A DNA stretch of 64,000 nucleotides. Origin: an uncultured Clostridia bacterium. Lineage in GTDB: Bacteria > Bacillota > Clostridia > Oscillospirales > Ruminococcaceae. The translations under genes were made by a program, and so were the position numbers. The notes under the pieces were generated by a model, which was not told the origin of the DNA, did no database searches, and worked only from the letters and a program-made list of their open reading frames with translations. The stretch spans positions 7,595-71,594 of the forward strand of contig CANPYR010000006.1 in assembly GCA_947588805.1 (NCBI GenBank), read 5' to 3'. Below are positions 4,258 through 61,026 of the stretch, piece by piece (within the stretch, counting starts at the first letter, position 1; every line of letters begins with the position of its first letter).

Positions 4258-4448
4258 ATTAGCTCCTTAGGTTGGTTTTTATTTGAGTATAGCACAGTTT
4301 TAGGGAGAATGCAAGACGTGCGTTGAGATATCAGAGGGCAGAAGGCAGATATCGGAATTACAAGGGTTTCGTCTTCGGCGAGGATTTTAAAAGATTGAAA
4401 TGATATGTGATGAGTGGCTGTTCTTGTGCAGCAAGCAGGGGAGGGGAG

Positions 4449-4970
4449 TGCGGCGGGATGAGCGGGAGAGGGCAGGAAAACATTGCCGGTTTTGTTCCCG
4501 TTCGACTGCCCTCAAAACAAAGCGTTAAAACTTGCTTTTCGGACTTCGCGGTCATAAACGACCGACCGCTCGTCCTCAAAGAGTTTTAATCGCGTTGTTA
4601 AACGACCGCTTCGGTTGTCTCACGGACAAAACTCGGCAAGTTTGGCGGGCGCAGTCGGTAGTGCTTCCGCAGGAAAGTAGCTCGTCCCGCCGCGCGCGCA
4701 GTGTTAGTCAGCGCGAAATGATATTCGGAAGCAGGAAGTTATAGGTTTAGATAGCAAAGCTTTATCTCTGCACAGTAGTAAAATTTGCGGCAGAGACCTG
4801 CGGTTATATTATGCAGGCTTTTTTGCAGTAAGTAACTGAGTTGTAGCCGCAAAAATTTAATCAGCACTGCGCAGCGCTGAGACCACGGCAAGATGAATAC
4901 GCGGGCGCGGCTTTCGATCCCAACAACCTTCTGCTTATCTTCCCCTTTGAGACTCCCACCCCGGGCGCAG
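4449..4970. repeat. Long inverted repeat, left copy (IR-L)
   Basis: The reverse complement of 8185-8708 aligns along the whole length. The outer ~212 nt (4451-4662) differ at only about 8 positions by hand alignment. The inner ~310 nt are clearly homologous but much more diverged. Confidence 0.9.
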
Positions 4971-5035
4971 GGAGTGTACAAATCGCCCTCATTATCCCCA
5001 CTAATTAAATCTGTCACCAACGGTGACACCTTGAA

Positions 5036-5069
5036 ATTCTGACAATCTGACTTCTGACTTCTGTCCTCT
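5036..5069. repeat. 7-nt array (CTGAC-type): attctgacaatctgacttctgacttctgtcctct
   Basis: Direct reading. Followed by a perfect 9-bp hairpin (5071-5093) and then the promoter at 5109. Confidence 0.85.
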
Positions 5070-5108
5070 TGATGTGGTCGTTTTGACCACATCTCGGGCG
5101 CAGCCCCC

Positions 5109-5137
5109 TTGACGCCGACCCACAAATATGCTATAAT
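5109..5137 (+). promoter_or_regulatory. Sigma-A-type promoter TTGACG-N17-TATAAT (TG-extended)
   Basis: TTGACG 5109-5114, TATAAT 5132-5137 preceded by atgc. About 38 nt upstream of ATG 5176. Confidence 0.65.
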
Positions 5138-5175
5138 CAATCATCCCCCCAATCACCAAAAAAGAGGTCCCCGCC

Positions 5176-6827: not shown

Positions 6828-6864
6828 ATTCTGACCTCTGACCTCTGACTCTCTGTCCTCTAAT
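6828..6864. repeat. 7-nt array (CTGAC/CTCTAA-type) abutting the bcp stop
   Basis: attctgacctctgacctctgactctctgtcctctaat. The bcp TAG stop (complement of 6860-6862) is the TAG of the last TTAGAGG unit. Confidence 0.85.
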
Positions 6865-7318
6865 CGCGTATATCCGCAAGAGTCTCGGCGGGGTTTTCGG
6901 CAGCCTTCGCCTTGGCATAGATTTTCTCTATCTTCCCGTCCTTGTCTATAAGAAAAGTCGTCCTCACTACTCCCATAGACGTTTTCCCGTAAAGCTTCTT
7001 TTCCTGCCACACCCCGTAAGCCTTTATCGCTTCAAGCTCGGGATCCGAAAGGATGGTGAAATTAAGCCCGTACTGCTCCGCAAATTTTTTATGCGAAGCG
7101 ACGCTGTCCTTGCTTACGCCTAAAATGACCGAGCCGCGCTCTGTTATCTCGGGCTTGAGATCCCTAAACCCGCAGGCCTGTTTCGTACATCCCGAGGTAT
7201 TGTCCTTGGGATAAAAATAGAGTATAACCCGCTTTCCACGGTAGTCCGAGAGCCTATGCGCTTCGCCGCTTTGATCCAAAAGCTCAAAATCCGGCGCTGT
7301 CTGTCCGATTTCCGGCAT
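6860..7318 (-). CDS. bcp: Thiol peroxidase Bcp/PrxQ (peroxiredoxin)
   Basis: 152 aa. Signature YFYPKDNTSGCTKQAC with CxxxxC. Confidence 0.95.
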   Translation of the reverse strand: MPEIGQTAPDFELLDQSGEAHRLSDYRGKRVILYFYPKDNTSGCTKQACGFRDLKPEITERGSVILGVSKDSVASHKKFAEQYGLNFTILSDPELEAIKAYGVWQEKKLYGKTSMGVVRTTFLIDKDGKIEKIYAKAKAAENPAETLADIRD

Positions 7319-7981
7319 TTACTTTTCCTCCCCGTTATTTTTAATATTTTTGATATTTTTAATATTTTTAATATTCTCCGGCATGATCCAGAAACTGTTC
7401 ATACCGTGAAGATAAGTCTTAGCGCCCTTCGGCATCTGAACAAGCGCGTTGAAAGCGTTCATGTAGTCGCCCGCACCCATTCCTACCGCCATCGCTCCCC
7501 AGAGTCCTATGTACCAAAGCTCAGGAAAGATCATCCATAAAATATAGGGGATCATGCCGAAAACGACGTTCGGGAGCATGCACATAATGACAAACCGAGC
7601 CTTTGAGAACAGCTCCGGCGCGACTACGAAGCAGAGTCCCTTCTTAAGATTTGTATACATATACGCGTCGCCCTTGCAGCAGACCGCGTGAAGAAATTCG
7701 TGGGGGACTATCAGTATAAGCGTGCTTAATAAGCAGATTGCGACAAAGACCGCCAAGTACGGGATAAGACCGAATTTATCGATGAATTTACCTACTCCTT
7801 CATTCCCGAAGATCATCACCGGAACGATCAGAGCGAGGGTTATAACAGCCGACAGGGCGTTAAAAATTATCGGAAGCTTTTCGGCTGAAGGCTCCTTGAA
7901 CGGAACGAAGTCCGGCTCATGCTCGCGGGTGGGGAGGGCTTCATAGTTGCCGTCAAATTTTCCCATGTAGTGAAATTTCAT
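7319..7981 (-). CDS. Multi-pass membrane protein with an HExxH-like motif (DUF3267-type putative zincin peptidase)
   Basis: The ORF track start is GTG 8020. I prefer ATG 7981 (MKFHYMGKF...), 5 nt after AAGGAGG. HEFLHA motif within hydrophobic helices. The C-terminus NIKNIKNIKNIKN comes from a 9-nt repeat. Confidence 0.75.
   Translation of the reverse strand: MKFHYMGKFDGNYEALPTREHEPDFVPFKEPSAEKLPIIFNALSAVITLALIVPVMIFGNEGVGKFIDKFGLIPYLAVFVAICLLSTLILIVPHEFLHAVCCKGDAYMYTNLKKGLCFVVAPELFSKARFVIMCMLPNVVFGMIPYILWMIFPELWYIGLWGAMAVGMGAGDYMNAFNALVQMPKGAKTYLHGMNSFWIMPENIKNIKNIKNIKNNGEEK
7336..7376. repeat. In-frame 9-nt tandem repeat (tatttttaa x4) encoding (NIK)n
   Basis: Direct reading. Lies within the last codons of the 7319..7981 gene. 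Confidence 0.9.
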
Positions 7982-8040
7982 ATTTTCCTCCTTTTGGTTG
8001 GTCTGGTTATATTTTAGCACACGGGCAAAGGAATGTCAAT

Positions 8041-8127
8041 ATAGAAGACAGAGGTCAGAAGTCAGATTTGCGGGGAGAGCGATTTCTATCTTCTAACTTC
8101 TAACTCTCTAACTTTCTATCCTCTAAG
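8041..8127. repeat. Composite 7-nt array: TCAGARG units, GC-rich core, then CTTCTAA units
   Basis: atagaagacagaggtcagaagtcaga / tttgcggggagagcgat / ttctatcttctaacttctaactctctaactttctatcctctaag. Confidence 0.85.
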
Positions 8128-8184
8128 ATCAGCTCGCGTACGGAAGGACAAAGGACGGCGAGTCGTGCGCGTCAGCGCACTGGG

Positions 8185-8708
8185 CTGCGCCCGGGGTGGG
8201 AGTCGCAAAGGGGAAGATAAGCAGAAGGTCGTTGTGAGCGAAAGCCGCGCCTGCTGCTTTATCGTGCCGTGGTCTCAGCGCAGCGCAGTACGGTTTAAAT
8301 TCTTGCGGCTACATCACAGTTACGGACAGAAAAAAACCTGTTCAATATAACCGCAAATCTCTGCCGCTGATTTTACTGCTGTGCAGAGATAAAGCTGTGC
8401 TATCTAAGCCTACGCACCCTGCTTCTGAATATCATTTCGCGCTGGACTCAACTTCGAGCACGCGGCGGCGGGATTCGCTACTTTTCTGACTCATCTCTAC
8501 CGACTGCGCCCACCAAACTTGCCGAGTTTTGTCCGTGAGACAACCGAAGCGGTCCGCTAACAACGCGATTAAAACTCTTTGAGGACGAGCGGGCGGTCGT
8601 TTATGACCGCGAAGTCCGAAAAGTAAGTTTTAACGCTTTGTTTTGAGAGCAGTCGAGCGGGAACAAAACCGGCAATGTTTTCCTGCCCTCTCCCGCTCAT
8701 CCCGCCGC
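8185..8708. repeat. Long inverted repeat, right copy (IR-R)
   Basis: Reverse complement of IR-L (4449-4970). Both ends match exactly: ctgcgcccggggtgggagtc at 8185 pairs with gactcccaccccgggcgcag ending at 4970, and tcccgctcatcccgccg near 8708 pairs with cggcgggatgagcggga at 4451. Confidence 0.9.
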
Positions 8709-9003: not shown

Positions 9004-11748
9004 ATGCGGGACCGTAAGGGGTTTACCTATGTCGAGCTGCTGACCGTTTTGGCGATTTTGGCTGTAGTCGCTCTTACGGTTATGCCCTACGCGGCTTCCG
9101 AACAGAAGAGAATAAGACTTAAAATGCTCGACGATCAGGCTCACGCGCTCTATATGGAGTGCCAGCATAAGCTTTACAGCCTTGATTCGGCGGGAGAGCT
9201 CGGAGGGATCCGTAGCCTTTCAAACGCCACCGAGTCCGAGACGGAATATATTTTGTTCGAACAGGATTCGGAAGCGCTGAGCGATCTTACGGAGAGAAAA
9301 TTCGGATTTAAAAGCGCGATACTTGAATATTACGTTAATTCTCCTACAGTTCCGATTGTGAGGAGAGTTTATTATTCCGACAGCATGAGCCCGGAGCAGC
9401 TTGAGATACTTTATAAAAATCTCGGATATAAAATTGACGGGGACTTTCGGGAAAGATATATGATAGGATACAGCGGGGACGACGGGGTTCAGGAATTTCC
9501 GGAGCCGTTTCCTTACCGCCTGATACCGAAGATAAAGGTCATAAACGACGAGGAGCTGTATCTTGAAATAAGCTCCGACGACATTCCGAAGGACGATGAG
9601 AACTTAAGCGTTTCAGTGAATCTTTACGCGGTGAATCCCGACGGCGGCAGGGGAAGCTTTATAAGAAACGTCTCTACCGAGAGAACCGTTCCGGGGTACG
9701 ATCCCGAGGATATGTTCGATCCAGATAATAAAGTGCTTTTTCGCGCGCTTATAGATTCCGCGCAGTACGGAGGAACGGCATTTGCGGAGCTGAACCCGGG
9801 CTATACAGGGGTAAAGGTCGAAGCGGAAGCGGTAATTACATATGTGAAGACGGATAAAAGCGGCGGGGTGATCCGAAAAACATCAGAGGAGGACGCAAAG
9901 AAAGCCTCGGTAATTTTTGACCCGATGTTTGAGGACCGCGATCAGGCGGCTTTTTTAGTTTCTAAGGTAAGACATCTTAACAACCTGAGATATTTAAGCG
10001 GAAGCATAAACGTAGCTCTGACCTCGGATATAGATTTTTCGGATCTCGTTTCGCCTAAGTTTTATCGCGATACCGTCTCCCACAGCCTTTCGCTGACGCC
10101 TATATCTCTTAAGACGGGCGGCTTCACTGGAAGCTTCGACGGGCGAGGGCATATAATAAAGAATATAGTTTTAAACCCGTCCGGCGAACTGTTCGGGCTT
10201 TTTACCGAGATAAAGAGCGGGAGCGCGGTAAGAAATCTGCATTTGAGCGGGAGCGTAATTCTTGACGCGGGGGATTCAAAAATCGCCGGAGCGATATGCG
10301 GAAGACTTTGCTCGGGAGCGACCGTAGAGAACTGTTCGGTATCGGAAATAAAGATAAGAGCAGAAAGTCCCGGGACGGTCGGAGGGATAGCCGGCGAGTG
10401 CCTTGGAGAAATAAAAGGCTGCAGCGCGATATTTGAAGAATTAAAAGCAGGAATCGGTTCAACCGTAGGAGCAATAACAGGAAAACTCCTCGGCGGGACC
10501 GTTTTTTTATCCCACAGCGGCGGGAAGATCATATCCGGCTCCGGCTCGGAGCTTAACGGGATAGCCGGAGGAACCGACGGGATAATAAGAAACTGCTACA
10601 GCGAATGCAGTACGGGATATATTAACGGCTCGGAATTTTACGCGCTGGGAAGCGTGACATGCAAAAATTCTCAGGCTGCGGCGGAATGCTCCTGGATAAG
10701 CATAGGGAAAGAGGAGCGCTTGCCGAGGGACGATATTTCTGTCCCGGGATTTGATACCGCGTACAGGCGTTACAGAAACGGGGAGATATATTCGGGCTTT
10801 GCAATTCCGGAGAGCGTTAAAACGGATTACGGGCCGACAAGATTCGGAAGCGACGCGCTGCCAGAGCCGAGAGGACTTATAGGGATAGTTAAAGTAAGAT
10901 ATGACGGCGGGAACGGATATGAATATGAATTGCGGGAAAGCTTCGACGGTTACGGAAACGACTCCGAAAATTTTCCGAGGATAGAATGGTACAGTCCTCG
11001 CGACGGCGAAGAGAGATATTATATTTTCAGAAACGCTTTTTCCTATCCCGAGGGCGGGGAGGACGGCTGGGAGGTAATTACCGACGGCGAGCTGAGCGAT
11101 GAGGGGACAACGGATTTTTATGTGTATATGAGGGTAACGGATACCGAGCTGGTGACTCTGAGGTTCGGGGATACGGCGCGGGACGTTGAGATTGAGGAGA
11201 GGGAGGAAGAGGAAGAAGTAAAGGAAAAGGGCAGCTTCGGTCTGGCGGCGGTGATGTATGACGAGTGGGCGGGATTTGACGAGTATACTTTTTCACCGAT
11301 CCCCGGCTACGTATTTTATTATCAGTACTTTGACGAGACAGGGCAGATACGCTTACGAGACGGCGGCGACAGCAGAGATCCCGCGGATATCCTGCCATGG
11401 CTTGAGGAGTTCAGCTTTAACGATCCCGAGGATTTGCAGACAAAAATCTTTATCTTCTGGACGAAAACCCTTGAATGCAAGAAAAGCTGGGACATAGAGG
11501 AACTTGACATAGACGGCGAGATACAATATTATTTCAGCGGCGAAGGCGCGGAGCCGTACGAGGATTCGACAGGCGTGAAATATATGGTTTACGAGCTCGG
11601 AGATTTCAGCGCGTATGAAGACTACGGAAGATTCAGCGCGACGTTTAACGCCCCGGGCTGGGAAAAGAGCAGAAAGCTCACAGTTTACGCGAGGGAGTCT
11701 CCGGGAGAGGGGATATACATTCCGCAGTTTGAGGGTTCCGGGCCTTAG
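9004..11748 (+). CDS. Very large protein with a prepilin-type N-terminal cleavage/methylation signal and GLUG-motif repeats
   Basis: 914 aa. The N-terminus MRDRKGFTYVELLTVLAILAVVAL has G-1/F+1/E+5 followed by a hydrophobic helix. The central region carries GLUG-like repeats (GLFTEI, GGIAGEC, NGIAGGTDGIIRNCYS). The C-terminal part is acidic. Confidence 0.8.
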   Translation: MRDRKGFTYVELLTVLAILAVVALTVMPYAASEQKRIRLKMLDDQAHALYMECQHKLYSLDSAGELGGIRSLSNATESETEYILFEQDSEALSDLTERKFGFKSAILEYYVNSPTVPIVRRVYYSDSMSPEQLEILYKNLGYKIDGDFRERYMIGYSGDDGVQEFPEPFPYRLIPKIKVINDEELYLEISSDDIPKDDENLSVSVNLYAVNPDGGRGSFIRNVSTERTVPGYDPEDMFDPDNKVLFRALIDSAQYGGTAFAELNPGYTGVKVEAEAVITYVKTDKSGGVIRKTSEEDAKKASVIFDPMFEDRDQAAFLVSKVRHLNNLRYLSGSINVALTSDIDFSDLVSPKFYRDTVSHSLSLTPISLKTGGFTGSFDGRGHIIKNIVLNPSGELFGLFTEIKSGSAVRNLHLSGSVILDAGDSKIAGAICGRLCSGATVENCSVSEIKIRAESPGTVGGIAGECLGEIKGCSAIFEELKAGIGSTVGAITGKLLGGTVFLSHSGGKIISGSGSELNGIAGGTDGIIRNCYSECSTGYINGSEFYALGSVTCKNSQAAAECSWISIGKEERLPRDDISVPGFDTAYRRYRNGEIYSGFAIPESVKTDYGPTRFGSDALPEPRGLIGIVKVRYDGGNGYEYELRESFDGYGNDSENFPRIEWYSPRDGEERYYIFRNAFSYPEGGEDGWEVITDGELSDEGTTDFYVYMRVTDTELVTLRFGDTARDVEIEEREEEEEVKEKGSFGLAAVMYDEWAGFDEYTFSPIPGYVFYYQYFDETGQIRLRDGGDSRDPADILPWLEEFSFNDPEDLQTKIFIFWTKTLECKKSWDIEELDIDGEIQYYFSGEGAEPYEDSTGVKYMVYELGDFSAYEDYGRFSATFNAPGWEKSRKLTVYARESPGEGIYIPQFEGSGP

Positions 11749-15814: not shown

Positions 15815-15850
15815 ATAGAGGATAGAATGTCAGAGGGTTAGATGATAGAA
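15815..15850. repeat. Degenerate 7-nt array (ATAGARG/TCAGAGG/TTAGATG)
   Basis: atagaggatagaatgtcagagggttagatgatagaa. Confidence 0.7.
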
Positions 15851-15880
15851 ATAAAATAATCCGCAATTCACAGAGTACTT

Positions 15881-23032: not shown

Positions 23033-23035
23033 CTG

Positions 23036-23350: not shown

Positions 23351-23386
23351 AAGCGACACACTCTCAGACCCCAACCCTCAAAACAT

Positions 23387-49721: not shown

Positions 49722-49748
49722 TGTTAAATCAAAAAAGGAGTGTGCAAA

Positions 49749-50519
49749 ATGAATAAAGAAAACATTTACGACGCTATGGGGAATATCGACGGAGAGTATA
49801 TCGAAGCGGCGGCCGAGACAGGCGCGAAAAAGAAAAAATCCCGAAGATTTCCTTGGGCGGCGATCGCTGCGGCAGCACTTGTAACGGTCATGACGGTGGG
49901 CGCTGCGGCTGCGGCGGGAGGGCGTTTTACCGACATAAAAAATATCTTCGGCACAGTTACCGGAACTAAATTCGAGGACGCGACAGATGATCTTAAGCTT
50001 GAAATCATCGGATTTAAAAACGGCAGTCCGGAAATAATCGCCGAGAGGACTGATCCCGAAAAGCTTCCGTTCAGTCTTCCCGGGAACACGCTTAAGCTTG
50101 GGGAATATCAGCTTACAGACAGCAGCGGAAATGTGATCGCTGAGAGAAAGTATAATTCGGACGACGCGCCGGAGATCAGGTATAACGACGACGCTAATGG
50201 AGAGTTTGGGGATGAAGCAGCGGAAGAATATATTGGGATCTCGGGGATAGATCCCGATAAGCTTACAAAAACAGGCAGAAAAGTTATATATCTGACCGCC
50301 GAGCGGAATGCGGACGGGACGTACAGCGGCGGCGCGGTAGAGGAGCGGGAGATTTATGCTTCTGCCGACGGGAAAGAGTATCTCTTTATCGAAAATTCTT
50401 CGCCGCTCGCTCCGGGTGAGTACGAGATTTCGGTGAAGTCGGTTATTATGTTGTCGAAAGGAGATCAGGATATGGAGATCACGGGGGAGTGGAGATTGGT
50501 ATTTGAGATAGCGGGGTGA
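49749..50519 (+). CDS. Single-pass membrane protein downstream of the sigma factor (possible anti-sigma)
   Basis: ATG 49749 after GGAG. Short cytoplasmic N-terminus (NIDGEYIEAAAE), one TM helix, ~190-aa extracytoplasmic domain. No zf-HC2 motif seen. Confidence 0.5.
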   Translation: MNKENIYDAMGNIDGEYIEAAAETGAKKKKSRRFPWAAIAAAALVTVMTVGAAAAAGGRFTDIKNIFGTVTGTKFEDATDDLKLEIIGFKNGSPEIIAERTDPEKLPFSLPGNTLKLGEYQLTDSSGNVIAERKYNSDDAPEIRYNDDANGEFGDEAAEEYIGISGIDPDKLTKTGRKVIYLTAERNADGTYSGGAVEEREIYASADGKEYLFIENSSPLAPGEYEISVKSVIMLSKGDQDMEITGEWRLVFEIAG

Positions 50520-50560
50520 TGGGAATTCAAATCCCGGGAGGGCCCGTTCCTCACACACTG

Positions 50561-50601
50561 TTTCCGATATCTGATTTTTGACATCCGACATCTAACCCCT
50601 C
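50561..50601. repeat. Degenerate 7-nt array abutting a -35 box
   Basis: tttccgatatctgatttttgacatccgacatctaacccctc. Confidence 0.6.
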
Positions 50602-52238: not shown

Positions 52239-54098
52239 ATGTCCGAAAAAGACGTCAAAGACAAAAAAACAAGGGAAAAGCCGACCTACGGCGCTCCGCG
52301 CTGCCTTTTGTTCACTTGCGGGCGGGTGTGGAGATACTCAAAGCAGTTCTTTATATTGATATGGACGACCTTGGCGGCTAATCTTATTTGCACGGTCCTG
52401 AACTTTTACTTTGCGCCTTCTCTGATCGGCACTTTGGAGCGCGGCGAAGGGATTGCGGCGTTCATGCTCACGCTTCTTGTTCTGGGCGGCGGGCAGGCGC
52501 TCGTCAAGGGAATAATCAACTATATCGACAAAAACTGCGTCTCGTACAGACAGATACTCAAATCTCGGCTCACCGAGGAAGTCACAGAAAAAATCGCTGC
52601 GACGTCCTATCCGAATTTTCTGACCGAAAAATTCAAAAACCGCACCTCGCAGGCCTTTGAAGCGACCGAGAGCGGTGTGATCAACTCGTTTTGCGATCTT
52701 ATAACATACTTTCTGAAAACGTTGATACTCTTCGGGTTTTATCTGTATTTTCTGACCGATCTTCACCCGCTCTTGGGGTTTGTCACGGGGATTTTGTCGG
52801 GTATAATGTTCTTTTACAACCGCTGGGCGTACGCCTGGGGTCAGCGCCATAGGGACGAGGAATCGGAGGTATGGCGCAAGTGGGACTATGTAAGAGACAA
52901 CATGGTAAAGCTGCCGTTTATTAAAGAGCTTAAGCTTTTCGGAATGACGGGGTGGATAGAGAGCATATTCCGGGAAGTGTATATGATCTCGGCAAGACTT
53001 TCTGTTAAGCGGGAAAAATTCTTCGCCTGGCGCGGCGTTGTCAATATTATAACCAACGTTTTGCAGCAAGGGTTTGCGTTCTATATCTTAATTTCCGCGG
53101 CGATACGCGGGGAGATAACCGCGGCAAGGTTTGTGCTTTTGGTCTCGGCTATCGACAACTTTGCGGCGCAGGTCGGAGGGGTGTTCGATTCAATTAACCA
53201 TGTCAGGCAAGACTGTCTTAAGGTCAATAATTTCATGGAGTTTATAAACTACCCCGAGCCGTTTAAGTTTGAGAACGGCGCCCCCGTTCCGCGCGCGGAT
53301 GGCTATGAAATCAAGCTTGAAAACGTCAGCTATACCTATCCAGGCGCGGATAAAAAGACTCTCGATCGCTTTGACATAACGATACGCAGGGGCGAAAAGC
53401 TTGCTATGGTCGGGCTAAACGGCGCGGGAAAAACTACCGTGGTGAAGCTGATCTGCGGGTTTATAGATCCCGACGAGGGCAGAGTTTTACTTAACGGTCA
53501 GGATATCCGCGACTTTGACCGCCGCGACTATTACAGACTGTTTTCGGCGGTGTTCCAGCAATTTTCCGTGATCGATTCTACTATCGCGCAAAATATCTCG
53601 CAGACGGTTGAAAATATCGACCGTCTGAAGCTTGACGACTGCATAAAAAAAGCGGGGCTTGAAAAGACGATAAAAAAGCTCCCGCAGGGGATTGAAACCC
53701 ACCTCGGGCGGGACGTTTACGACGACGGGATAATGCTGTCCGGCGGGCAGACTCAACGGCTTTTGCTTGCGCGCGCGTTATATAAAAACGCGCCGATACT
53801 TGTTCTTGACGAGCCGACGGCCGCGCTCGATCCGCTTGCGGAAAACGATATTTATATGAAATACAACGCTATGTGCTCGGGAAAGACTTCGGTGTTTATC
53901 TCCCACCGCTTCGCTTCGACGAGGTTCTGCGACAGGGTAGTTTACGTCGCCGACGGAAGGGCGGCCGAGGTCGGCACTCACGACGAGCTGATAAAACTCG
54001 GCGGCGGGTATGCTAAGCTCTTTGAGGTCCAGGCGAGATATTACCGCGAGGGCGATATCCGCGAAGCTATAAGAAAGGAGAAGGAAAACCATGCCTAA
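52239..54098 (+). CDS. ABC exporter half-transporter (TMD-NBD)
   Basis: 619 aa. GLNGAGKTT, LSGGQTQR, LVLDEPTAALD. Confidence 0.9.
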   Translation: MSEKDVKDKKTREKPTYGAPRCLLFTCGRVWRYSKQFFILIWTTLAANLICTVLNFYFAPSLIGTLERGEGIAAFMLTLLVLGGGQALVKGIINYIDKNCVSYRQILKSRLTEEVTEKIAATSYPNFLTEKFKNRTSQAFEATESGVINSFCDLITYFLKTLILFGFYLYFLTDLHPLLGFVTGILSGIMFFYNRWAYAWGQRHRDEESEVWRKWDYVRDNMVKLPFIKELKLFGMTGWIESIFREVYMISARLSVKREKFFAWRGVVNIITNVLQQGFAFYILISAAIRGEITAARFVLLVSAIDNFAAQVGGVFDSINHVRQDCLKVNNFMEFINYPEPFKFENGAPVPRADGYEIKLENVSYTYPGADKKTLDRFDITIRRGEKLAMVGLNGAGKTTVVKLICGFIDPDEGRVLLNGQDIRDFDRRDYYRLFSAVFQQFSVIDSTIAQNISQTVENIDRLKLDDCIKKAGLEKTIKKLPQGIETHLGRDVYDDGIMLSGGQTQRLLLARALYKNAPILVLDEPTAALDPLAENDIYMKYNAMCSGKTSVFISHRFASTRFCDRVVYVADGRAAEVGTHDELIKLGGGYAKLFEVQARYYREGDIREAIRKEKENHA

Positions 54099-55974
54099 AA
54101 AGCAAAAAGAGAAAAAATACGAAATGTCGGTAAAAGAGTCGGCGCAGTGGACGCTTAAGGCGATAAAGCTTTTGCACAGTCTCGCCCCGGGAGAGATGGA
54201 GCTTGAATTTGCGAACGATATAAGCAATATAATATTTAATTATGTAAACATCTATCTCATGGCGCGGCTTATCGACGAGTTGGCGACTCGCATGCGACCG
54301 GAAAAGCTTGTATTGTTCGCGGTGTTGATAATTGTATGCTTAATTTTCGATCAGGTCTTTTACTACATATTCTTCCATATCAAGCAGTACAAAGGCATTT
54401 TCAGGGGCGAAAAGAAGCAGTATATGCTTAACAAAAAGCTGACGAGTCTTGACTTCGCGGACGCAGAGGGCCAGGAGATCCGCGACCGATTCTTTAAGAT
54501 AAAACAGGACCAGGATTGGCTGAATATGGGGATAGACGGCGCATACAACATTTTGGAAAGCTTTATAGGCGGAGCTGTTATGATTTTAGGCGGCGTGGTT
54601 CTGTCGGTAAGTTTTTTCTTTACAAAAGTCCCCGACGGAACTAAGGGCGCATGGTTTCTGAATTCTCCGCTTTTAATTTTAGCTGTAACAGCGATAATCG
54701 CGATAATCACAAAACTCGCTACGGCAAGCGGCATCAAGGCTTATAATATCGAAAGCCGAACAAACGACGCGTCGTCGAAGATGAACAGAATGCAGCGGCA
54801 TACCGAAGATATCCTGAAGGACGAAAACCGCGCGCTCGATATGCGAATCTATGACCAGCGCTCCCAGATAATCGCAATGAGACGGGAAGCCGTCGACCAC
54901 GGCTACGCTGCTATGGTGAAAAAGTATTCCCGGGGCTCGGCGGGACTTTTGAGGGCGGCGCAGAGCTTCGCAGTGTGGCTTCCCGACTCGGTCATGTTTT
55001 TTGCAGTCGGTTTAAAAGCCCTCGCCGGGGCGTTCACGATAGGCGCTGTCACGCAGTATGTTCAGGCGCTGACGAGAGTTTCGGACTGCATTTCGGAGGC
55101 GATCTTTAATCTTTCAAACATGCGGATAAACGCGCCGTATATTAAGAAGGTTTTTGATTTTATGGAGCTGCCGAATAAGATGTATCAGGGCTCCTTAACG
55201 ACCGAAAAGCGTTCCGATCGGCAGTACGACGTTGAATTTCGCGACGTGAGCTTCAGATATCCCACCGCGAAAAACTGGGCTCTTCGGCATGTGAACATAA
55301 AATTCCGAGTAGGCACGCGGCTTGCGGTAGTAGGCGAGAACGGCTCCGGAAAGAGCACGTTCATAAAGCTTCTCTGTCGGCTTTACGACCCGCAGGAGGG
55401 GGAAATTCTCCTCAACGGCATCGACATAAAAAAATACAATCCCAAGGATTACATGGACGTGTTCTCGGTTGTTTTTCAGGACTATTTCCTGCTTTCACAG
55501 CCGCTCGGCGAGAATGTAGGCTGCTCGAAGGATTATAACCGTGAAAAAGCCGAGAAATGCCTTTGCGAAGCGGGTTTCGGGGAACGTCTCAAATCGCTTC
55601 CGGACGGGTTGGATACATATATAAATAAAGAATTTGAGCCGACAGGCGTGCAATTCTCGGGCGGCGAGCTGCAAAAGATCGCGATAGCGAGGGCGTTATA
55701 CAAAAACGCGCCGTTTATAATTTTAGACGAGCCGACCGCCGCGCTCGATCCAATTGCGGAAGCGGAGATATATAAGCAGTTTGACGAAATTACCGGAGAC
55801 CGCACCGCGATCTATATAAGCCACAGGCTTTCAAGCTGCAGGTTCTGCGACGAGATAGCGGTGTTCGACGAGGGAAGGATAGTGGAGCGCGGGAAGCATG
55901 ACGAGCTGATAAAGGCGCGCGGGAGGTATAAAGAGCTTTGGGAAGCCCAGGCGGGGTACTATGGTAGTTGTTAG
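54091..55974 (+). CDS. ABC exporter half-transporter (TMD-NBD), partner of the previous gene
   Basis: 627 aa. 8-nt overlap with the upstream gene. GENGSGKST, FSGGELQK, IILDEPTAALD. Confidence 0.9.
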   Translation: MPKKQKEKKYEMSVKESAQWTLKAIKLLHSLAPGEMELEFANDISNIIFNYVNIYLMARLIDELATRMRPEKLVLFAVLIIVCLIFDQVFYYIFFHIKQYKGIFRGEKKQYMLNKKLTSLDFADAEGQEIRDRFFKIKQDQDWLNMGIDGAYNILESFIGGAVMILGGVVLSVSFFFTKVPDGTKGAWFLNSPLLILAVTAIIAIITKLATASGIKAYNIESRTNDASSKMNRMQRHTEDILKDENRALDMRIYDQRSQIIAMRREAVDHGYAAMVKKYSRGSAGLLRAAQSFAVWLPDSVMFFAVGLKALAGAFTIGAVTQYVQALTRVSDCISEAIFNLSNMRINAPYIKKVFDFMELPNKMYQGSLTTEKRSDRQYDVEFRDVSFRYPTAKNWALRHVNIKFRVGTRLAVVGENGSGKSTFIKLLCRLYDPQEGEILLNGIDIKKYNPKDYMDVFSVVFQDYFLLSQPLGENVGCSKDYNREKAEKCLCEAGFGERLKSLPDGLDTYINKEFEPTGVQFSGGELQKIAIARALYKNAPFIILDEPTAALDPIAEAEIYKQFDEITGDRTAIYISHRLSSCRFCDEIAVFDEGRIVERGKHDELIKARGRYKELWEAQAGYYGSC

Positions 55975-56175
55975 AGAATAGTTGTTAGTAGTTAGTTGGG
56001 AATATTGATGGATGGGATTTAGGATAGACGGAATGTTATGGGATCTGAGTGTTAAATTGTCTGTACTTCTCAAGGGTGGGGAATATATTCTATCCTCTGA
56101 TTATCTATCGGCTGTTTTCTAAAAGGCGAAGCCTTGGGACTAACTACTAATATATATTAAGCTATAACTAAAAGA
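55962..56175. repeat. Mosaic element with GTTAGTA-type arms (same type as 23036-23350), starting inside the last codons of the ABC gene
   Basis: Left arm ggtagttgttagagaatagttgttagtagttagttggg contains the TAG stop at 55972-55974. Right arm ggactaactactaatatatattaagctataactaaaag. Confidence 0.85.
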
Positions 56176-58090: not shown

Positions 58091-59656
58091 ATGGATCTAT
58101 TTATTAAACTCGCCATGCTGATAATATTCTTCGGCGTGATGGTAGCTATCGGGCTTTACTGCCGAAAGCATGCGACGGACGTAAACGGTTTCGTGCTCGG
58201 CGGCAGAAACGTAGGCCCCTGGCTCACGGCTTTTGCATACGGCACCAGCTATTTCTCGGCGGTTGTGTTTGTGGGATACGCCGGGCAGTTCGGATGGAAG
58301 TACGGCGTGGCGGCGACCTGGGCGGGACTCGGAAACGCCTTTATCGGCTCGCTTATGGCCTGGGCGATACTCGGAAGAAGAACAAGGGTAATGACTCAGC
58401 ATCTTGACAGCGCGACCATGCCGGAATTCTTCGGGAAGCGCTTTGACAGCTCCGCTCTTAAGCTCTGCGCTTCGGCGATTATCTTCATCTTCCTGATCCC
58501 CTACACCGCTTCGCTTTATAACGGTCTTAGCAGACTTTTCGCGATGGCGTTTGATATCGATTACGCGGTCTGCGTAATAGTTATGGCGGTGCTGACCGGA
58601 ATATATGTGATCGCCGGAGGATATATGGCGACCGCGATAAACGACTTTATACAGGGTATAATCATGATCTTCGGGATCGTGGCGGTAATAGCGGCGGTTC
58701 TTAACAGCCAGGGCGGCTTCCTGATGGCGCTTGAAAAGATGGCGAACGTGAGCGATCCCGCGGTATCGAGCGCTCCGGGAGTATTCAATTCCTTCTTCGG
58801 CCCCGACCCGATAAACCTTCTCGGAGTCGTTATCTTAACCTCCCTCGGGACCTGGGGTCTGCCGCAGATGGTGCAGAAATTCTACGCGATCAAGAGCGAG
58901 TCCGCTATAAACAAGGGTATGATAATCTCGACCGTTTTCGCTCTTATAGTGGCGGGAGGATGCTACTTCCTGGGCGGTTTCGGAAGACTTTTCTCCGACA
59001 AGATGGAGATCGTGAACGGTATCCCTAACGGAAGCTACGATTCGGTCATCCCGACTATGCTTTCGGGACTTCCGACTCTTCTGATAGCGGTGGTTGTGAT
59101 CCTTGTGCTCTCGGCTTCTATGTCTACGCTTTCCTCTCTGGTCCTGACTTCAAGCTCCACTCTGACTCTTGATTTCATCAAGGGAACGATAGTTAAGAAC
59201 ATGGACGAAAAGAAGCAGGTAAGAGTGATAAGAACTCTTGTGGCGGTATTTATCGCCATCTCCGCAGTGCTGGCTATCATCCAGTACCGCTCGAGCGTCA
59301 CCTTTATAGCTCAGCTCATGGGCGTAAGCTGGGGCGCGCTTGCGGGAGCTTTCCTGGCTCCGTTTATGTACGGGCTTTACTGGAAGCGCACCTCCAAAGC
59401 CGCTTGCTGGGTAAGCTTCGTATTTTCCACCGTGTTCATGCTTCTTGTTATCTCGCCGCTTAAAACTTTCCTCCCGGCGCTCTTGCAGTCCCCGATAAAC
59501 GCGGGCGCGTTCTGCATGATAATGGGGCTTATAATCGTGCCGATTATAAGTATGTTCACTTCCGCGCCGAAAAAAGAACGGCTTGACGAGATATTCGCCT
59601 GCTACGACAAGACAGTAACCGTAAAGGTAAAGGATTCCATAGGCGAAGAAGCGTAA
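58091..59656 (+). CDS. Sodium:solute symporter (SSS) family transporter
   Basis: ATG 58091 after AGGAGAG. About 13 TM segments. Family-like GGYMATAINDFIQG segment. Confidence 0.88.
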   Translation: MDLFIKLAMLIIFFGVMVAIGLYCRKHATDVNGFVLGGRNVGPWLTAFAYGTSYFSAVVFVGYAGQFGWKYGVAATWAGLGNAFIGSLMAWAILGRRTRVMTQHLDSATMPEFFGKRFDSSALKLCASAIIFIFLIPYTASLYNGLSRLFAMAFDIDYAVCVIVMAVLTGIYVIAGGYMATAINDFIQGIIMIFGIVAVIAAVLNSQGGFLMALEKMANVSDPAVSSAPGVFNSFFGPDPINLLGVVILTSLGTWGLPQMVQKFYAIKSESAINKGMIISTVFALIVAGGCYFLGGFGRLFSDKMEIVNGIPNGSYDSVIPTMLSGLPTLLIAVVVILVLSASMSTLSSLVLTSSSTLTLDFIKGTIVKNMDEKKQVRVIRTLVAVFIAISAVLAIIQYRSSVTFIAQLMGVSWGALAGAFLAPFMYGLYWKRTSKAACWVSFVFSTVFMLLVISPLKTFLPALLQSPINAGAFCMIMGLIIVPIISMFTSAPKKERLDEIFACYDKTVTVKVKDSIGEEA

Positions 59657-59690
59657 TACAAATAATAAAATATAATAAATATTATAAATT

Positions 59691-59727
59691 AAATCCGGCT
59701 CTTCCTAAAAGAAAGCCGGATTTTTTG
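59691..59727. terminator. Bidirectional intrinsic terminator between convergent genes
   Basis: Stem aaatccggct/agccggattt followed by T-runs on both strands. Confidence 0.8.
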
Positions 59728-59752
59728 CATATCGAACCCCGTTTAGTCGGGA

Positions 59753-60721
59753 TCAGTAAAGCGCGGGAAGCTCGGACTTTGTGACAGCGCAGGGGCTGTT
59801 ATAGAGACTTCTGAGATATTCGTACGTGTTCACATTCTCCCCTAAAACGAAGCCGTGAGACCATGTCATATAATACGACCAGCCTATTTTTCTTCGGGAT
59901 ATCTCCTCTACGTCGGGAAGAGTCCCTATCTCTCCTATCGCCGCGATCTTGTTACGGGACGTGATCTTTATAAGCTCGCGGTATTTATCCTCCTGCGCGG
60001 TGTGGCAGTGCGGTTCGGGATACATATCGCGGGAAATTATATCCGTAACGTCGTCCCCGGGATAGCAGGAAGCGAGCGGAGAATTCGCGACCCAGATGAG
60101 ATTATTGAGCTTATGTATCTCGGTGTAGCGCTTATACATCATCCTGAAGAGCTTTTTTACCGTCTCGGGGCCCTTAGCTCCCCACCAGAACCAGCTGCCC
60201 TCGGCTTCGTGAAAGGGTCTCCAGAGTATCGGGATCCCTTTATCGCAAAACGGTCTTAGGAGCCCTGCCATACAGTCCATGTCGGAAATAAGCGCGATAT
60301 TTTCGGGCGTGCCGTCTACAGTCGCTTTTTCGGCGTCAAAGTCGGTGTTTTTGGTAAAGAATGACTTCGAGCGCCCGCCGAGCGGCGAGAACCAATGCCA
60401 TGTGAAGGTTATAAGCCCCTTTTCGTTCGCCCACTCCCACGCGCGCTTTAAAGTGCCGTAATTGCGCTCGACTTCGTCAATGCATTCCGCGTCGGTATCA
60501 AGATAATTTATGTTCGGGGAATATGACAAAAGCTCAAACCCCAAAAGCGCGGGCTTTTTCCCGGTTATCTCTTCAATTTTAAAAAGCTCCTCCTGCGCCA
60601 TGGTCTGCGTATGCTGACCGGTTACTATCTTTTCGCCTGAGATATCTGACAGAAATCTGAGCACGTTCTTTACGCCCTCCTGAGCGTTCGGATTGACCGG
60701 AGTATACAGCTTCTCGCTCAT
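59753..60721 (-). CDS. GH26-family glycoside hydrolase (beta-mannanase-like), no signal peptide
   Basis: 322 aa. WRPFHEAEGSWFWWG catalytic-region motif. Confidence 0.85.
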   Translation of the reverse strand: MSEKLYTPVNPNAQEGVKNVLRFLSDISGEKIVTGQHTQTMAQEELFKIEEITGKKPALLGFELLSYSPNINYLDTDAECIDEVERNYGTLKRAWEWANEKGLITFTWHWFSPLGGRSKSFFTKNTDFDAEKATVDGTPENIALISDMDCMAGLLRPFCDKGIPILWRPFHEAEGSWFWWGAKGPETVKKLFRMMYKRYTEIHKLNNLIWVANSPLASCYPGDDVTDIISRDMYPEPHCHTAQEDKYRELIKITSRNKIAAIGEIGTLPDVEEISRRKIGWSYYMTWSHGFVLGENVNTYEYLRSLYNSPCAVTKSELPALY

Positions 60722-60905
60722 GCTTTTTGCTCCTTTCGCAGTTTCTGCTCTAAGTATATCACCGTGAGTAAAGAAATTAAATTGTGATTTTAAACAAAGT
60801 TATAGAATGAGATTTGGAGGATTAGACGGAGTCTGACCGCTTGTGCGCGAAAAACGACCGATTGTGTAATCGTGGGTTGAAATTAGAGCGGAACGGGGGT
60901 AGGCT

Positions 60906-61026
60906 TTTAGATGTTAGAGGGTTAGATGGTTAGAAGATTAGAAGATTAGAAGATAGAATTCGGAGAGCGGCGGCGGGATGAGCTGCGCTGTCAGAGGACG
61001 GAATTGAGAAATCAGAAGTCAGAATA
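60906..61026. repeat. Mosaic element: TTAGAWG array, GCGGCGGCGGGATGAGC core, TCAGARG array (same orientation)
   Basis: tttagatgttagagggttagatggttagaagattagaagattagaagatagaa ... tcagaggacggaattgagaaatcagaagtcagaatac. Confidence 0.9.

Follow-up and report, generated by a model that had tools for sequence, protein, structure and literature searches.

The 7-base tandem repeats that tile intergenic spacers in a 64,000-nt stretch of DNA (the window) from a gut-type, spore-forming Clostridia bacterium related to Oscillospiraceae are genuine, and represent a local, unusually modular example of the widespread, still unexplained heptanucleotide repeats of bacteria. The reading we lean towards is that they are LSSR/STRR-type arrays assembled as modular mosaics, probably transcribed as 3'UTR or spacer elements, with arm pairs folding into long hairpins.

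Enrichment, repeat unit and recurrence between assemblies

Chains were defined as at least three T[TC]AGA/TCT[AG]A (YAGA/TCTR) cores at 7-8 nt spacing and counted against a crude ORF map of the window. The 9,603 nt of intergenic DNA hold 20 such chains versus one in 54,397 nt of ORF DNA; the expectation from dinucleotide shuffles is 0.01 and 0.14 chains, respectively. The lone 'coding' chain (5036-5069) lies in a doubtful ORF without a Pfam match, and as gene calls on same-species contigs shorten this ORF to 4739-4981, the chain can be counted as intergenic too. These counts bear out the proposal of an earlier note on this DNA that the arrays are enriched in intergenic sequence and avoid coding DNA save for the last codons of genes. 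All arrays listed there were recovered at or within a few nucleotides of their positions (TRF and inspection of the sequence), and they are, as it held, not CRISPR. They do occur in multiple spacers, but not in 'at least 17' or in 'most': we count ~26 arrays in 14 spacers, or 44% of the 32 that measure 60 bp or more. Two stretches reported as arrays, 23036-23350 and 55962-56175, proved to be hairpin elements with array arms rather than continuous arrays, and the suggested core CT[AG]AC gives way to the better conserved TCT[AG]A / T[CT]AGA. The self-match excess is confined to periods 7-9 of the periods 4-12 scanned. Across 115 scored units the spacing is 7 nt 74 times and 8 nt 20 times, and the consensus is [T/A][T/C]AGA[A/G/T][G/A/T], with no C on the purine-rich strand except at position 2. 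Arrays of 8-mers (TCTAACCC, TCCGCTAA) and 9-mers (ATTTTGCAC) share the landscape with the heptamers. The elements are as follows, where R and Y denote the purine-rich and pyrimidine-rich array forms and A, B and C the dispersed modules described below.

4332-4352, + strand: short R array of 3 units (CAGAGGG/CAGAAGG)
5036-5069, - strand: module B-like, Y array on +; forms the left arm's inner end in a 620-nt inverted repeat, 40 nt upstream of a -35 box at 5109
6828-6866, - strand: module B, R-type on the ahpC sense (-) strand; outer unit provides GAT-TAG, the last codon and stop of ahpC
8042-8068, + strand: module B reverse complement, R when read on +; read on -, it stops 2 nt before the -35 box TTGACA at 8039
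8085-8126, - strand: module A (TTCTAACTTCTAACTCTCTAACTTTCTATCCTCTA), 89% identity
14267-14301, - strand: module B, R-type in the sense direction of a - strand PBP gene, 32 nt past its stop
15815-15851, + strand: module A reverse complement; Y-type read on the - strand, 38 nt upstream of a promoter-like site at 15777
21035-21084, + strand: R array of 7 units, TTAGAGG/TTAGAAG (TRF), providing the final 3 codons and TAG stop of the thioredoxin gene
21231-21264, - strand: 8-mer array, TCCGCTAA on + and T[TC]AGCGGA on - (TRF)
22657-22725, + strand: R array, Y-type on the - strand (TRF), where it stops 2-3 nt short of a weak -35 (TTGCTT)
23034-23153, unstranded: hairpin element of module C arm (GTTGTTAGAGAATAGTAGTTAGTAGTTAGT), 41-nt core and complementary arm
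23192-23310, unstranded: second module C hairpin element, in tandem with the first at a distance of 158 nt
23385-23462, - strand: 9-mer inverted pair, (ATTTTGCAC)n / (CAAAATGYR)n (TRF); the - strand is the 3'UTR side of a CE2 esterase gene
23485-23520, - strand: module B, R-type on the sense strand; unit zero is the TGA stop of gene 23518-24654
24717-24751, + strand: module A reverse complement, R arm of a pair in a divergent spacer
24764-24797, - strand: module B, Y arm of this pair, 6 nt before the -35 TTGACT at 24804
29096-29258, unstranded: composite 1, GC-rich core (GCGGCGGGGTGATTTGC ... GCAAATCCCCCCGCCGCC), module A, module B
29251-29427, unstranded: composite 2, tandem copy at 93-96% identity, running to the spoIIP ribosome-binding site
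30607-30648, + strand: module B reverse complement; CGAT-TAG provides the last codon and stop of spoIIP
30648-30731, + strand: GC-rich core, terminator-like hairpin followed by a T run
30735-30770, - strand: module C reverse complement, (ACTAACA)n (TRF), abutting the -35 TTGACA at 30771
32837-32922, - strand: adjacent modules A and B, each Y-type, flanked by a terminator hairpin and the 32926 promoter
34232-34326, unstranded: module B reverse complement, 15-nt spacer, module B; fills the entire 96-nt convergent spacer, R-type past the stop of each gene
50562-50601, - strand: degenerate Y-type array abutting the -35 TTGAAA at 50602 and overlapping the first annotated codons of a - strand gene
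55962-56174, unstranded: module C arm, ~140-nt core holding a short Y array (56089-56110), complementary arm 56139-56174; the module C arm overlaps the final 13 nt, stop included, of the ABC transporter ORF ending at 55974
60905-61026, + strand: module A reverse complement (60905-60958) and module B reverse complement (60993-61026), with a partial GC core in between; no other spacer has two R arrays and lacks a Y array

Short repeats, and related assemblies that are low-coverage metagenomes, could point to a low-complexity assembly artefact, but this is effectively refuted, as the arrays recur in independent same-species assemblies. Array regions are 98.9-100% identical in contigs from at least six other samples and two assembly pipelines (array 6828-6866 being identical in contigs L132-L136 and array 15815-15851 in L001). 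The sole difference is a clean indel in contig L130 of exactly +7 nt, i.e. one extra unit at 32849, and because unit number thus differs between strains by whole heptamers, slipped-strand mispairing is indicated. At the same spacer, related genera lack the DNA that the arrays add: the VanY-spoIIP spacer is 500 nt in the window and 170 nt in the relatives, in which both composites (29096-29427) are missing. Array positions differ between genera and are not conserved.

Position and polarity relative to genes

The arrays tile spacers from the stop codon, which is frequently unit 1, up to the next -35 box or ribosome-binding site, sometimes replacing the last 1-3 codons of the gene and providing its stop. 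In the convergent trx/pgm spacer the R array at 21035-21084 lies between the thioredoxin stop and a bidirectional terminator (21146-21173), and the 8-mer array lies between this terminator and the stop of the phosphoglycerate mutase gene. The promoter of the mutase gene, as read from the sequence, has TGATATAAT as its extended -10 in addition to the weak -35 TTGCTT.

Polarity is fixed, with the purine strand trailing the upstream gene in its sense direction and the pyrimidine strand preceding the downstream promoter. Arrays next to a gene 3' end are purine-rich in the sense direction in 8 of 10 cases, and six -35 boxes are preceded, at 0-8 nt, by the end of a Y array (array positions -36 to -70), consistent with the earlier observation that arrays frequently end right at such boxes. 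A scan recovered the boxes proposed at 24804, 30771 and 50602, whereas the site at 32926, as read from the sequence, has a weak -35 box paired with an extended -10. Sense strands of ORFs in the window are purine-loaded (mean purine fraction 0.538, above 0.5 in 40 of 45 ORFs). All nine window spacers holding both forms have the R arm first and the Y arm second, whichever strand is read, and among loci from many phyla this order outnumbers the reverse 24:1 (p = 1.5e-6). Of the three YAGA pairs in the window, two occupy divergent spacers, upstream of the promoters of both genes. The order also holds in divergent spacers, which neither flanking gene transcribes, and there is no obvious need for a terminator or 3'-end role at such pairs. 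Pairs in other phyla are found mainly where genes are tandem or convergent, and their arms lie 0-30 nt away from an ORF end.

The abutment of Y arrays on -35 boxes would suit the idea of the earlier note of cooperative protein binding or insulation, taken here as putative double-stranded sites for a regulator or nucleoid protein that shield promoters from upstream terminators, in which every third unit would face the same side of the helix (21 nt is, arithmetically, two helical turns). We judge this very improbable: it offers no reason for the polarity relative to the upstream stop codon or for the R-then-Y order, many arrays occupy 3'UTR positions far from promoters, the mixture of 7- and 8-nt spacings disrupts helical phasing and, unlike UP elements, the arrays are not A/T-rich. 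Nothing in the analysis favours binding to double-stranded DNA; the gene-relative polarity and R-then-Y chirality, together with a G.U-dependent folding asymmetry, instead point to single-strand or hairpin properties.

Modules, mosaics and predicted hairpins

Aperiodic details recur among the arrays at 66-97% identity (89-97% for module A), thereby defining three dispersed modules with fixed outer ends (…CTGTCYTCTAA) and indicating that the arrays are not independent slippage products. The modules join with a GC-rich core into mosaics, and copies of entire modules and of 155-169-nt composites are spread over many spacers, in one case in tandem. That the arrays are scattered copies of a small module set with defined ends, combined in mosaics, had been missed in the earlier note.

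A neutral origin is unlikely in our view, despite much that agrees with it. Slippage would favour 7-nt units, and functionless arrays would expand in unconstrained sequence until halted by stop codons, terminators or -35 boxes, their polarity reflecting strand-asymmetric mutation or purine loading. Arrays that tile all free spacer and end exactly at functional boundaries, their unconserved positions, the unit indels between strains, the many unrelated heptamers, 8-mers and 9-mers in the same genomes and the alternation of C and T at unit position 2, which amounts to a sense-strand transition, all fit this account, as does the slippage origin proposed by Mrazek for such repeats, as cited in PMC4679880. 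Independent slippage does not, however, give the same aperiodic module at 6-14 loci, in the window the R-then-Y order extends to divergent spacers transcribed from neither flanking gene, and the chirality across phyla demands a directional mechanism.

Equally doubtful is a MITE-like foldback element of R arm, variable core and Y arm, in which the arrays would be terminal inverted repeats moved by a transposase encoded elsewhere, solitary arrays decayed half-elements, and the chirality the fixed sequence of the termini. The outermost unit is constantly T(T)AGA ... TCTAA, even with TCAGA inner units, the module end is conserved, and the arms are 76-92% complementary. At one Oscillospiraceae MAG locus (L039), R arm, conserved 45-nt core and Y arm recur three times inside 1 kb, and the core of one copy is inverted. 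The composites in the spoIIP 5' region, missing in relatives, have AAAGGA at all three junctions, and an inserted module takes the place of the final SpoIIP codons; the protein ends 2-3 residues earlier than its homologues. Against this, three pairs in the window (rcA-B, rcB-A and rcB-B) are core-less and cores vary between copies, so that a single progenitor is not evident. We saw no unambiguous target-site duplication, as the flanking TA belongs to the unit itself; a transposase gene was found neither in the 64 kb nor in the sequences of relatives examined, and the strains compared show no empty-site polymorphism. Whole-unit copy-number change is slippage behaviour, and a shared chirality across phyla would demand a common transposition mechanism.

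Computed folding gives arm pairs in the window z-scores from -2.7 to -5.8. The pair 8042-8068/8085-8126 is predicted to pair as RNA on the - strand only (-27.8 kcal/mol, z -2.7, versus -21, z -0.3, on +), while 24717-24797 prefers the + strand (-29.0 kcal/mol, z -5.8, versus -19.5) and the 9-mer pair 23385-23462 the - strand (-27.2 versus -20.3 kcal/mol), an asymmetry arising through G.U pairs. The convergent pair 34232-34326 reaches -28.8 and -26.3 kcal/mol (z about -3.3 and -3.7) and the module C hairpin 23034-23153 reaches -38.9 kcal/mol (z -4.0). Lacking GC-rich stems and clean U tracts, these hairpins are not canonical terminators, and about half of the arrays are solitary arms, unable to fold.

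Possible roles and relation to known repeats

Under our preferred reading of transcribed, hairpin-forming mosaics, the arrays would be part of 3'UTR or inter-cistronic RNA, as suggested by several arrays between a stop codon and an intrinsic terminator and by pairs in other phyla that fill spacers too short for a promoter. Paired arms would form long hairpins tolerating several registers, which may act like REP/BIME as barriers to 3' exonucleases or, alternatively, as weak bidirectional terminators or insulators marking transcription-unit ends. The 7-nt period may be set by slippage, or by the 7-nt footprint of an OB-fold protein, rather than by helix phasing.

A 7-nt footprint and a preference for T/C-rich heptamers characterise cold-shock proteins, and HutP recognises UAG-N4-UAG. 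The heptamers could be putative single-strand sites, each bound as RNA or ssDNA by one OB-fold or similar protein that controls termination, translation or the formation of hairpins. A 7-nt period that combines a conserved core of 4-5 nt with 2-3 free positions, the UAG every 7 nt in TTAGA-type arrays and the strand polarity relative to transcription are consistent with this, the near-universal cold-shock proteins would suit the wide phyletic spread, and a binding protein has already been suggested for TAACTGA repeats (PMC4679880). CAG-type units misfit HutP, CspB specificity is weak and 17% of spacings are 8 nt, and we rate the idea as quite improbable.

Heptanucleotide tandem repeats (LSSR/STRR) are a long-known bacterial class (Mrazek 2007 and STRR, reviewed in PMC4679880 and PMC4692102). 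Neither a literature search nor Rfam yielded a named family with these units, as the earlier note had supposed, but this class is a precedent for them. The GGGAATC heptamers of Xanthomonas and GGGGAYT heptamers of Nostoc follow a stop-codon and strand rule, with evidence of transcription (PMC4692102); the window arrays share this rule of position and strand, and we therefore place them in the same class. In their organisation, with few modules, defined ends and mosaics, they resemble BIME and BOX elements.

Distribution, unit structure and strain variation of the arrays

Tandem Repeats Finder returned period-7 arrays at every coordinate where the earlier note had placed one, as is also plain in the sequence, and in a scan of periods 4-12 (21-nt windows) the self-match excess was confined to periods 7, 8 and 9. 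With an array defined as at least three cores [TC]AGA, or the complement TCT[AG], at 7-8 nt spacing, the window contains 20 arrays in 9,603 nt of intergenic DNA versus 1 in 54,397 nt of ORF DNA, the expectations from dinucleotide-preserving shuffles being 0.01 and 0.14 respectively. The claim that the arrays avoid coding DNA apart from last codons is thereby borne out. The lone 'coding' array (5036-5069) lies in an ORF with no Pfam match, which gene calls on same-species contigs cut to 4739-4981, so that all arrays are intergenic bar a few terminal codons. The feature is real and highly non-random. Its spread had been overstated, since arrays (~26 in total) are found in only 14 of the 32 spacers measuring 60 bp or more, rather than in most intergenic regions or at least 17 of them. 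The earlier distinction from CRISPR stands, as the arrays have a period of 7-8 nt and no spacers, versus 23-47 nt CRISPR repeats with unique spacers.

The unit matrix, based on 115 units, is [T/A][T/C]AGA[A/G/T][G/A/T], and array length is 3 to 10 units. C is confined to unit position 2 of the purine-rich strand, with a C:T ratio of 46:54 there. Arrays of purine-rich heptamers (T[TC]AGA type) are hereafter called R arrays or arms, and those of the pyrimidine-rich complement (TCT[AG]A) Y arrays or arms. Unit spacing is 7 nt in 74 of 94 cases and 8 nt in the other 20, a mixture which speaks against the helix-face phasing suggested earlier. A reading as HutP-type RNA sites was rejected: UAG-N4 is present only in TTAGA-type units, 46% of the units being CAG, and the arrays stand at gene 3' ends and upstream of promoters instead of in a hut leader. 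Among the products encoded in the window (~49% GC) are SpoIIP, PBPs and numerous glycoside hydrolases and esterases; the closest SpoIIP homologues are 67-69% identical, the few named ones belonging to 'Oscillospiraceae bacterium' or 'Ruminococcus sp.' MAGs. Further short tandem arrays, of period 8-9 nt, are found at 23385-23462 (ATTTTGCAC), 23006-23032 (ATTTTCGAC), 21231-21264 (TCCGCTAA) and 7336-7375 (TATTTTTAA), the last inside the 3' end of the DUF3267 gene.

Relatives available for comparison were either same-species contigs, 98.9-100% identical to the window, or carried SpoIIP homologues at 67-69% identity. The same-species contigs (ERZ27249407, ERZ27249413, ERZ27059666, ERZ27059787, SRR27728186 and ERR10663680/1; SPAdes-style and Logan assemblies) match the window at this level with the arrays included. 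In the most divergent of them, L130, array 32837-32886 has one additional unit (CTTCTAT, +7 nt at 32849) and one substitution, a single copy-number event among ~6 strains. Because the difference is exactly one extra unit, whole-unit slippage is directly evidenced. A low-complexity assembly artefact was rejected, as contigs of other samples carry the arrays and L130 differs by one clean unit and one substitution. Stepwise unit drift inside single arrays is visible at loci from other phyla (L003, L006, L011, L016, L018 and L114), as where GGTCAGA passes via GGTCAGT to GGTCGGT, or TTCTGAA via TTCCGTA to TTTCGCA; this suggests local spread of new unit variants by slippage from one array end.

Position, polarity and order of the arms

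In eight arrays the start is -10 to +32 nt from a stop codon and the sense strand is the R strand, against two in the opposite orientation (p = 0.11 taken alone), and the TAG or TGA stop often doubles as unit 1 or unit 0. Between the trx stop codon and a bidirectional terminator (21146-21173) there is an array, matched by an 8-mer array in the mirror position for the convergent pgm gene, and from this placement both should be in 3'UTRs. The earlier note also reported that arrays end 0-10 nt before -35 boxes, which agrees with our finding that Y arrays stop 0-8 nt upstream at six sites:

Y arrays abutting -35 boxes in the window
8039, minus strand: Y array leading into a -35 box
~22654, minus strand: Y array leading into a weak -35 box with extended -10, read from sequence
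24804: Y array leading into a -35 box
30771: Y array leading into a -35 box
32926: Y array leading into a -35 box, with extended -10
50602: Y array leading into a -35 box

This adjacency is the only point in favour of the earlier proposal of double-stranded DNA binding or an insulator, a reading that we regard as very improbable. One further Y array terminates at the spoIIP ribosome-binding site. Some spacers are completely filled by array, terminator and promoter (e.g. 24655-24803, 30614-30887, 32796-33026 and 34232-34327). Degenerate heptamers at 50562-50601 (GATGTCG/GATGTCA/AAAATCA/GATATCG, minus strand) would encode the first 10 residues of an annotated 307-aa ORF (49668-50591), the true start of which is probably further downstream.

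All nine spacers with both array types have R before Y when read on the plus strand (p = 0.004), whether the flanking genes are divergent, convergent or in tandem. As this order reads identically on both strands, it is a true chirality. The same order was found in other genomes. A scan for runs of four TYAGARN units, in which each GTDB species was represented by a single genome, yielded at least 120 loci, those listed spanning Acidobacteriota, Verrucomicrobiota, Planctomycetota, Bacteroidota, Cyanobacteria, Chloroflexota, Patescibacteria and Spirochaetota together with a few Proteobacteria and several Clostridia MAGs. Contexts among the matches listed resemble those of the window, with arrays at gene ends, neighbouring arrays of other heptamers, unit drift and frequent inverted pairs, and the ratio of R to Y is 26:15 by 3' gene ends versus 7:15 by 5' ends (Fisher p = 0.02, among the matches listed). 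The R-then-Y order holds for inverted pairs within 200 nt in 17 of 18 cases among the GTDB matches listed, 6 of 6 in metagenomes and 1 of 1 in relatives, giving 24:1 overall (p = 1.5e-6, the GTDB part being from the matches listed), although some genomes contribute two or three pairs and the independent cases are therefore fewer than this ratio suggests. Where both neighbours were callable among the matches listed, the pairs occupy tandem (13), convergent (4) and divergent (2) spacers. Their arms are often 0-30 nt from ORF ends (again among the matches listed), a distance with no room for a promoter, so that many pairs must be transcribed within operons or 3'UTRs. The purine-arm-first rule, valid for either strand, is simple, very strong and directly testable, and is to our knowledge the most useful new handle on these repeats; if it holds genome-wide, it would constrain every model of their origin or action.

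Modules, composites and the spoIIP spacer

Comparison of the repeats within the window revealed aperiodic details shared between loci, indicating that the arrays are dispersed modules rather than independent products of slippage. Three modules recur:

Array modules of the window
Module A, TTCTATCTTCTAACCCTCTAACCCTCTATCCTCTA: direct at 8091, 29186, 29355 and 32851 (89-97% identity); reverse complement at 15815 and 60905
Module B, ATCTGTCATCTGACTTCTGATTTCTGTCTTCTAA: direct at 29223, 29392, 32887, 24764, 23487, 14269, 34289, 6828 and 5036; reverse complement at 30610, 8042, 34232 and 60993
Module C, GTTGTTAGAGAATAGTAGTTAGTAGTTAGT: direct at 23034, 23192 and 55962; reverse complement at 23118, 23275, 30737 and 56139

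The outer end of module B is constant (…TCTGTC(C/T)TCTAA) however many inner TCTGAC units there are. Arrays at 29109, 29264 and 30648 are linked by a GC-rich core (GCGGCGGGGTGATTTGC … ACTGCGCCC … GCAAATCCCCCGCCGCC), with partial copies at 8462, 4644 (reverse complement) and 60970, and the modules and core are combined in varied orders and orientations into mosaics. A purely neutral by-product of slippage would account for the tiling of spacers and the non-conserved positions of the arrays, but leaves the shared module sequences and the chirality unexplained, and we consider it unlikely. A tRNA origin of the core (…GGGATTCGCT…ACTGCGCCCACCA) was dropped as neither ARAGORN nor Rfam supported it; no tRNA genes were found in the window, and Rfam gave no match at gathering score and, with E allowed up to 5, just three chance-level hits, none of them at the arrays or hairpin elements. 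Beyond the species, a metagenome scan with module A recovered only unrelated (TTAGAGGG)n and (TTAGAAGG)n arrays. At seven of these loci (L142, L144, L169, L182, L188, L235 and L256) (TTAGAGGG)n directly adjoins (TTAGGG)n or (CCCTAA)n, the contigs are 60-74% GC and the arrays frequently occupy contig ends; they resemble variant repeats of eukaryotic telomeres or subtelomeres and have no relation to the window.

Several larger repeats are also present. A ~620-nt inverted repeat (4450-5069 and 8042-8708, 86-93% complementary) surrounds a 3.2-kb segment encoding an AAA_18 kinase-like protein, an acetyltransferase-like ORF, ahpC and DUF3267; its inner ends are module-B arrays, it holds the GC core of the short composites, and related sequence occurs in the relatives L125 and L126 (77-79%). 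Its short ORFs look like chance translations, and a protein-coding reading was rejected. The segment could be invertible or composite-element-like, and no recombinase was seen there. At 23036-23350 two tandem copies of a 158-nt unit each form a strong hairpin (-39 kcal/mol), in which heptamer-array arms enclose a 41-nt core (TTCGAGGTACTGCCAGACGGCGATATCCTGAAAGTTGCGTGGGGGAT); the unit matches nothing in Rfam and could be a small RNA or a MITE. The gene pairs at 35914-36213 and 38827-39126, and at 53739-53856 and 55657-55774 (73-77% DNA identity over 100-300 nt), are ordinary tandem paralogues of ABC transporters.

Upstream of spoIIP, a composite of core, module A and module B (155-169 nt) is present as a tandem duplicate at 93-96% identity. 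The two copies stand between a conserved promoter-like block and the ribosome-binding site, the VanY-spoIIP spacer measuring 500 nt as opposed to ~170 nt, array-free, in three relatives, and AAAGGA is present at all three junctions. At the other end of the gene, the protein terminates in …KALD* instead of the …KALAGQ* or similar of its homologues, and the GAT-TAG responsible is part of a module (CGATTAGAGG) also found at the end of ahpC and at 32914. The arrays thus supply stops, trim C-termini, abut -35 boxes and vary by whole units, and so affect gene calling, strain typing and possibly expression. The relatives carry arrays of their own elsewhere, at stop codons or as an inverted pair between convergent genes (L122, at 3754 and 13466/13547). 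In the relative L124 a fragment resembling the reverse complement of a tRNA 3' half (TGGTGGAGC…GGGATTCGAACCC, ~9930-9990) is placed between the promoter-like block and the ribosome-binding site of spoIIP; since this is where the window has its two composites, the site may be insertion-prone.

The paired arms of the window could alternatively be the terminal inverted repeats of small MITE-like elements. Terminal inverted repeats bounding a short non-coding element, with hairpins of -27 to -39 kcal/mol, fit this reading, as does an Oscillospiraceae MAG locus (L039) where an R arm, a conserved 45-nt core and a Y arm are present together three times within 1 kb, one copy having the core inverted and each adjoining a canonical terminator; fixed termini, the L039 copies and the chirality would all be explained together. 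Against it, no unambiguous target duplication, constant core or transposase was found in the window. The flanking TA belongs to the unit itself; AAAGGA stands at the spoIIP composite junctions, and in distant relatives the spacer is without the element. We give MITE-like elements a rather low probability.

Folding, possible action and related repeats

R and Y arms are 76-92% complementary, and paired arrays are predicted to fold on one or both strands:

Predicted folding energies of paired arrays
34228-34332: plus strand -28.8 kcal/mol; minus strand -26.3 kcal/mol (z about -3.5)
23030-23160, module C element: plus strand -38.9 kcal/mol; minus strand -38.6 kcal/mol
24712-24803: plus strand -29.0 kcal/mol (z -5.8); minus strand -19.5 kcal/mol (z -1.2)
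8036-8130: plus strand -21 kcal/mol; minus strand -27.8 kcal/mol
23385-23462, 9-mer inverted pair: plus strand -20.3 kcal/mol; minus strand -27.2 kcal/mol

The strand asymmetry arises because TTAGA:TCTGA pairing is U.G on one strand and C.A on the other, and for the 9-mer pair the better-folding strand is the 3'UTR strand of the adjacent gene. The array hairpins are rich in A, U and G.U pairs and, lacking a GC-rich stem followed by a clean U run, are not canonical terminators, which stand apart beside some arrays (21146 and near 32812).

Position, polarity, fold energies and analogy lead us to prefer a REP/BIME-like mode of action, in which the arrays would be transcribed as spacer or 3'UTR elements, their R and Y arms would pair into long, register-tolerant hairpins, and these hairpins would keep transcription units apart and define or shield 3' ends. 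This mechanism is weakened by the pairs in divergent spacers and the many solitary arms. A broader possibility is that heptamer arrays are products or targets of one conserved mechanism and constitute a general bacterial transcription-unit boundary element; the near-universal R-then-Y order (24:1 and 9/9) and shared stop-codon and strand rule would then argue that they are not species-specific junk. We think this improbable. Such arrays might be read, by an abundant protein whose footprint is 7 nt (such as an OB fold of the cold-shock or S1 type) binding the arms on single strands, or written directionally, if repeats were added to the 3' ends of a break that was then joined, leaving the same head-to-head signature as telomere fusions.

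We are confident in assigning the arrays to the heptanucleotide-repeat class, with unit slippage as their mode of evolution and with copying between spacers as modules. Like that class they have at least three head-to-tail units beyond chance, a non-coding excess, unit-wise variation and a stop-codon and strand rule. They are not a new kind of element but a new, well-structured form of the known heptanucleotide repeats. Such repeats have reportedly been recognized in bacteria since 1990, and we know of no function or generating mechanism established for them. Our literature search found no paper naming TTAGAGG or TCAGAAG arrays, or such repeats in Clostridia.

The preferred REP/BIME-like action draws on extragenic, transcribed elements of enterobacteria at 3' ends and between cistrons, which form hairpins, tile spacers and are built as mosaics of unit types in alternating orientation with specific linkers. 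The few unit types of the window (modules A, B, C and core) are likewise assembled into extragenic mosaics. REP units, however, are ~35-nt imperfect palindromes with a GTAG head and no internal 7-nt period, mobilised by RAYT transposases, whereas single window arrays are direct repeats without that head, complementary only when paired, and no RAYT (IS200/IS605-like) transposase was found among 20 proteins scanned from the 64-kb window. The BOX elements of Streptococcus pneumoniae, modular and intergenic (boxA, boxB in variable number, boxC), and Correia and other bacterial MITEs, bounded by terminal inverted repeats, also form hairpins, can contain or adjoin promoters and can undergo RNA processing. 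Their units, at 45-60 nt rather than 7 nt, set them apart, sequence similarity to the window arrays is not expected, and in Correia elements the TA duplications are clear and the core is constant. Foldback transposons, with long inverted arms of short tandem repeats and variable or absent cores, offer an analogy only, being eukaryotic, with much longer arms and transposase in some copies.

Among simple repeats, the named STRR units are CCCCAGT, TTGGTCA and CAACAGT, from which the window units differ, and we know of no earlier description of modular mosaics or R-then-Y chirality for STRR. The window nevertheless resembles STRR and other long simple repeats of 5-11 nt, as far as these are summarized in later papers, in its intergenic heptamer excess, sporadic phyletic spread and slippage-type variation (Mazel, 1990; Mrazek, 2007; via PMC4679880, PMC4692102). 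In many bacteria heptanucleotides outnumber all other long simple repeats, and slippage linked to a 7-nt polymerase contact has been proposed, according to the same summaries (Mrazek, 2007; via PMC4679880, PMC4692102). TAACTGA repeats of Beggiatoaceae, Cyanobacteria and Bacteroidetes are intergenic direct repeats, present in 2-6 copies and strand-biased relative to genes, but are located immediately 5' of start codons in place of a Shine-Dalgarno sequence; they were proposed to act at the RNA level, and OB-fold proteins, notably cold-shock proteins, to read them one heptamer each (MacGregor, 2015; PMC4679880). The window arrays, in contrast, are mainly just after stop codons and before -35 boxes, only the spoIIP case abutting a ribosome-binding site.

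The closest counterparts are GGGAATC of Xanthomonas and GGGGA(C/T)T of Nostoc, 7-nt units in 2-26 copies at hundreds of intergenic loci, whose G-rich strand is the coding strand where they overlap a stop codon or lie 0-50 bp from it, and the non-coding strand where they precede ORFs (Rehm et al., 2015; PMC4692102). They are mostly transcribed, inverted repeats occur, lengths differ between close relatives and no function was found (PMC4692102). The window arrays share the stop-codon and strand rule, inverted pairs and length variation between relatives, but differ in host, a Clostridia (Firmicutes) bacterium, in unit sequence (T[TC]AGA[AG]N without G tracts), in showing no four-unit preference, in having modules with fixed ends and in using divergent spacers. 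G-quadruplex formation was rejected for them, with at most GG per unit, none in TCAGAAG, and lengths of 3-10 units. The window is thus a compact Clostridia case, of gut or rumen type, of heptamer repeats without the G-quadruplex option, and because it obeys the GGGAATC/GGGGAYT rule with units unable to form such structures, the quadruplex explanation is not general.
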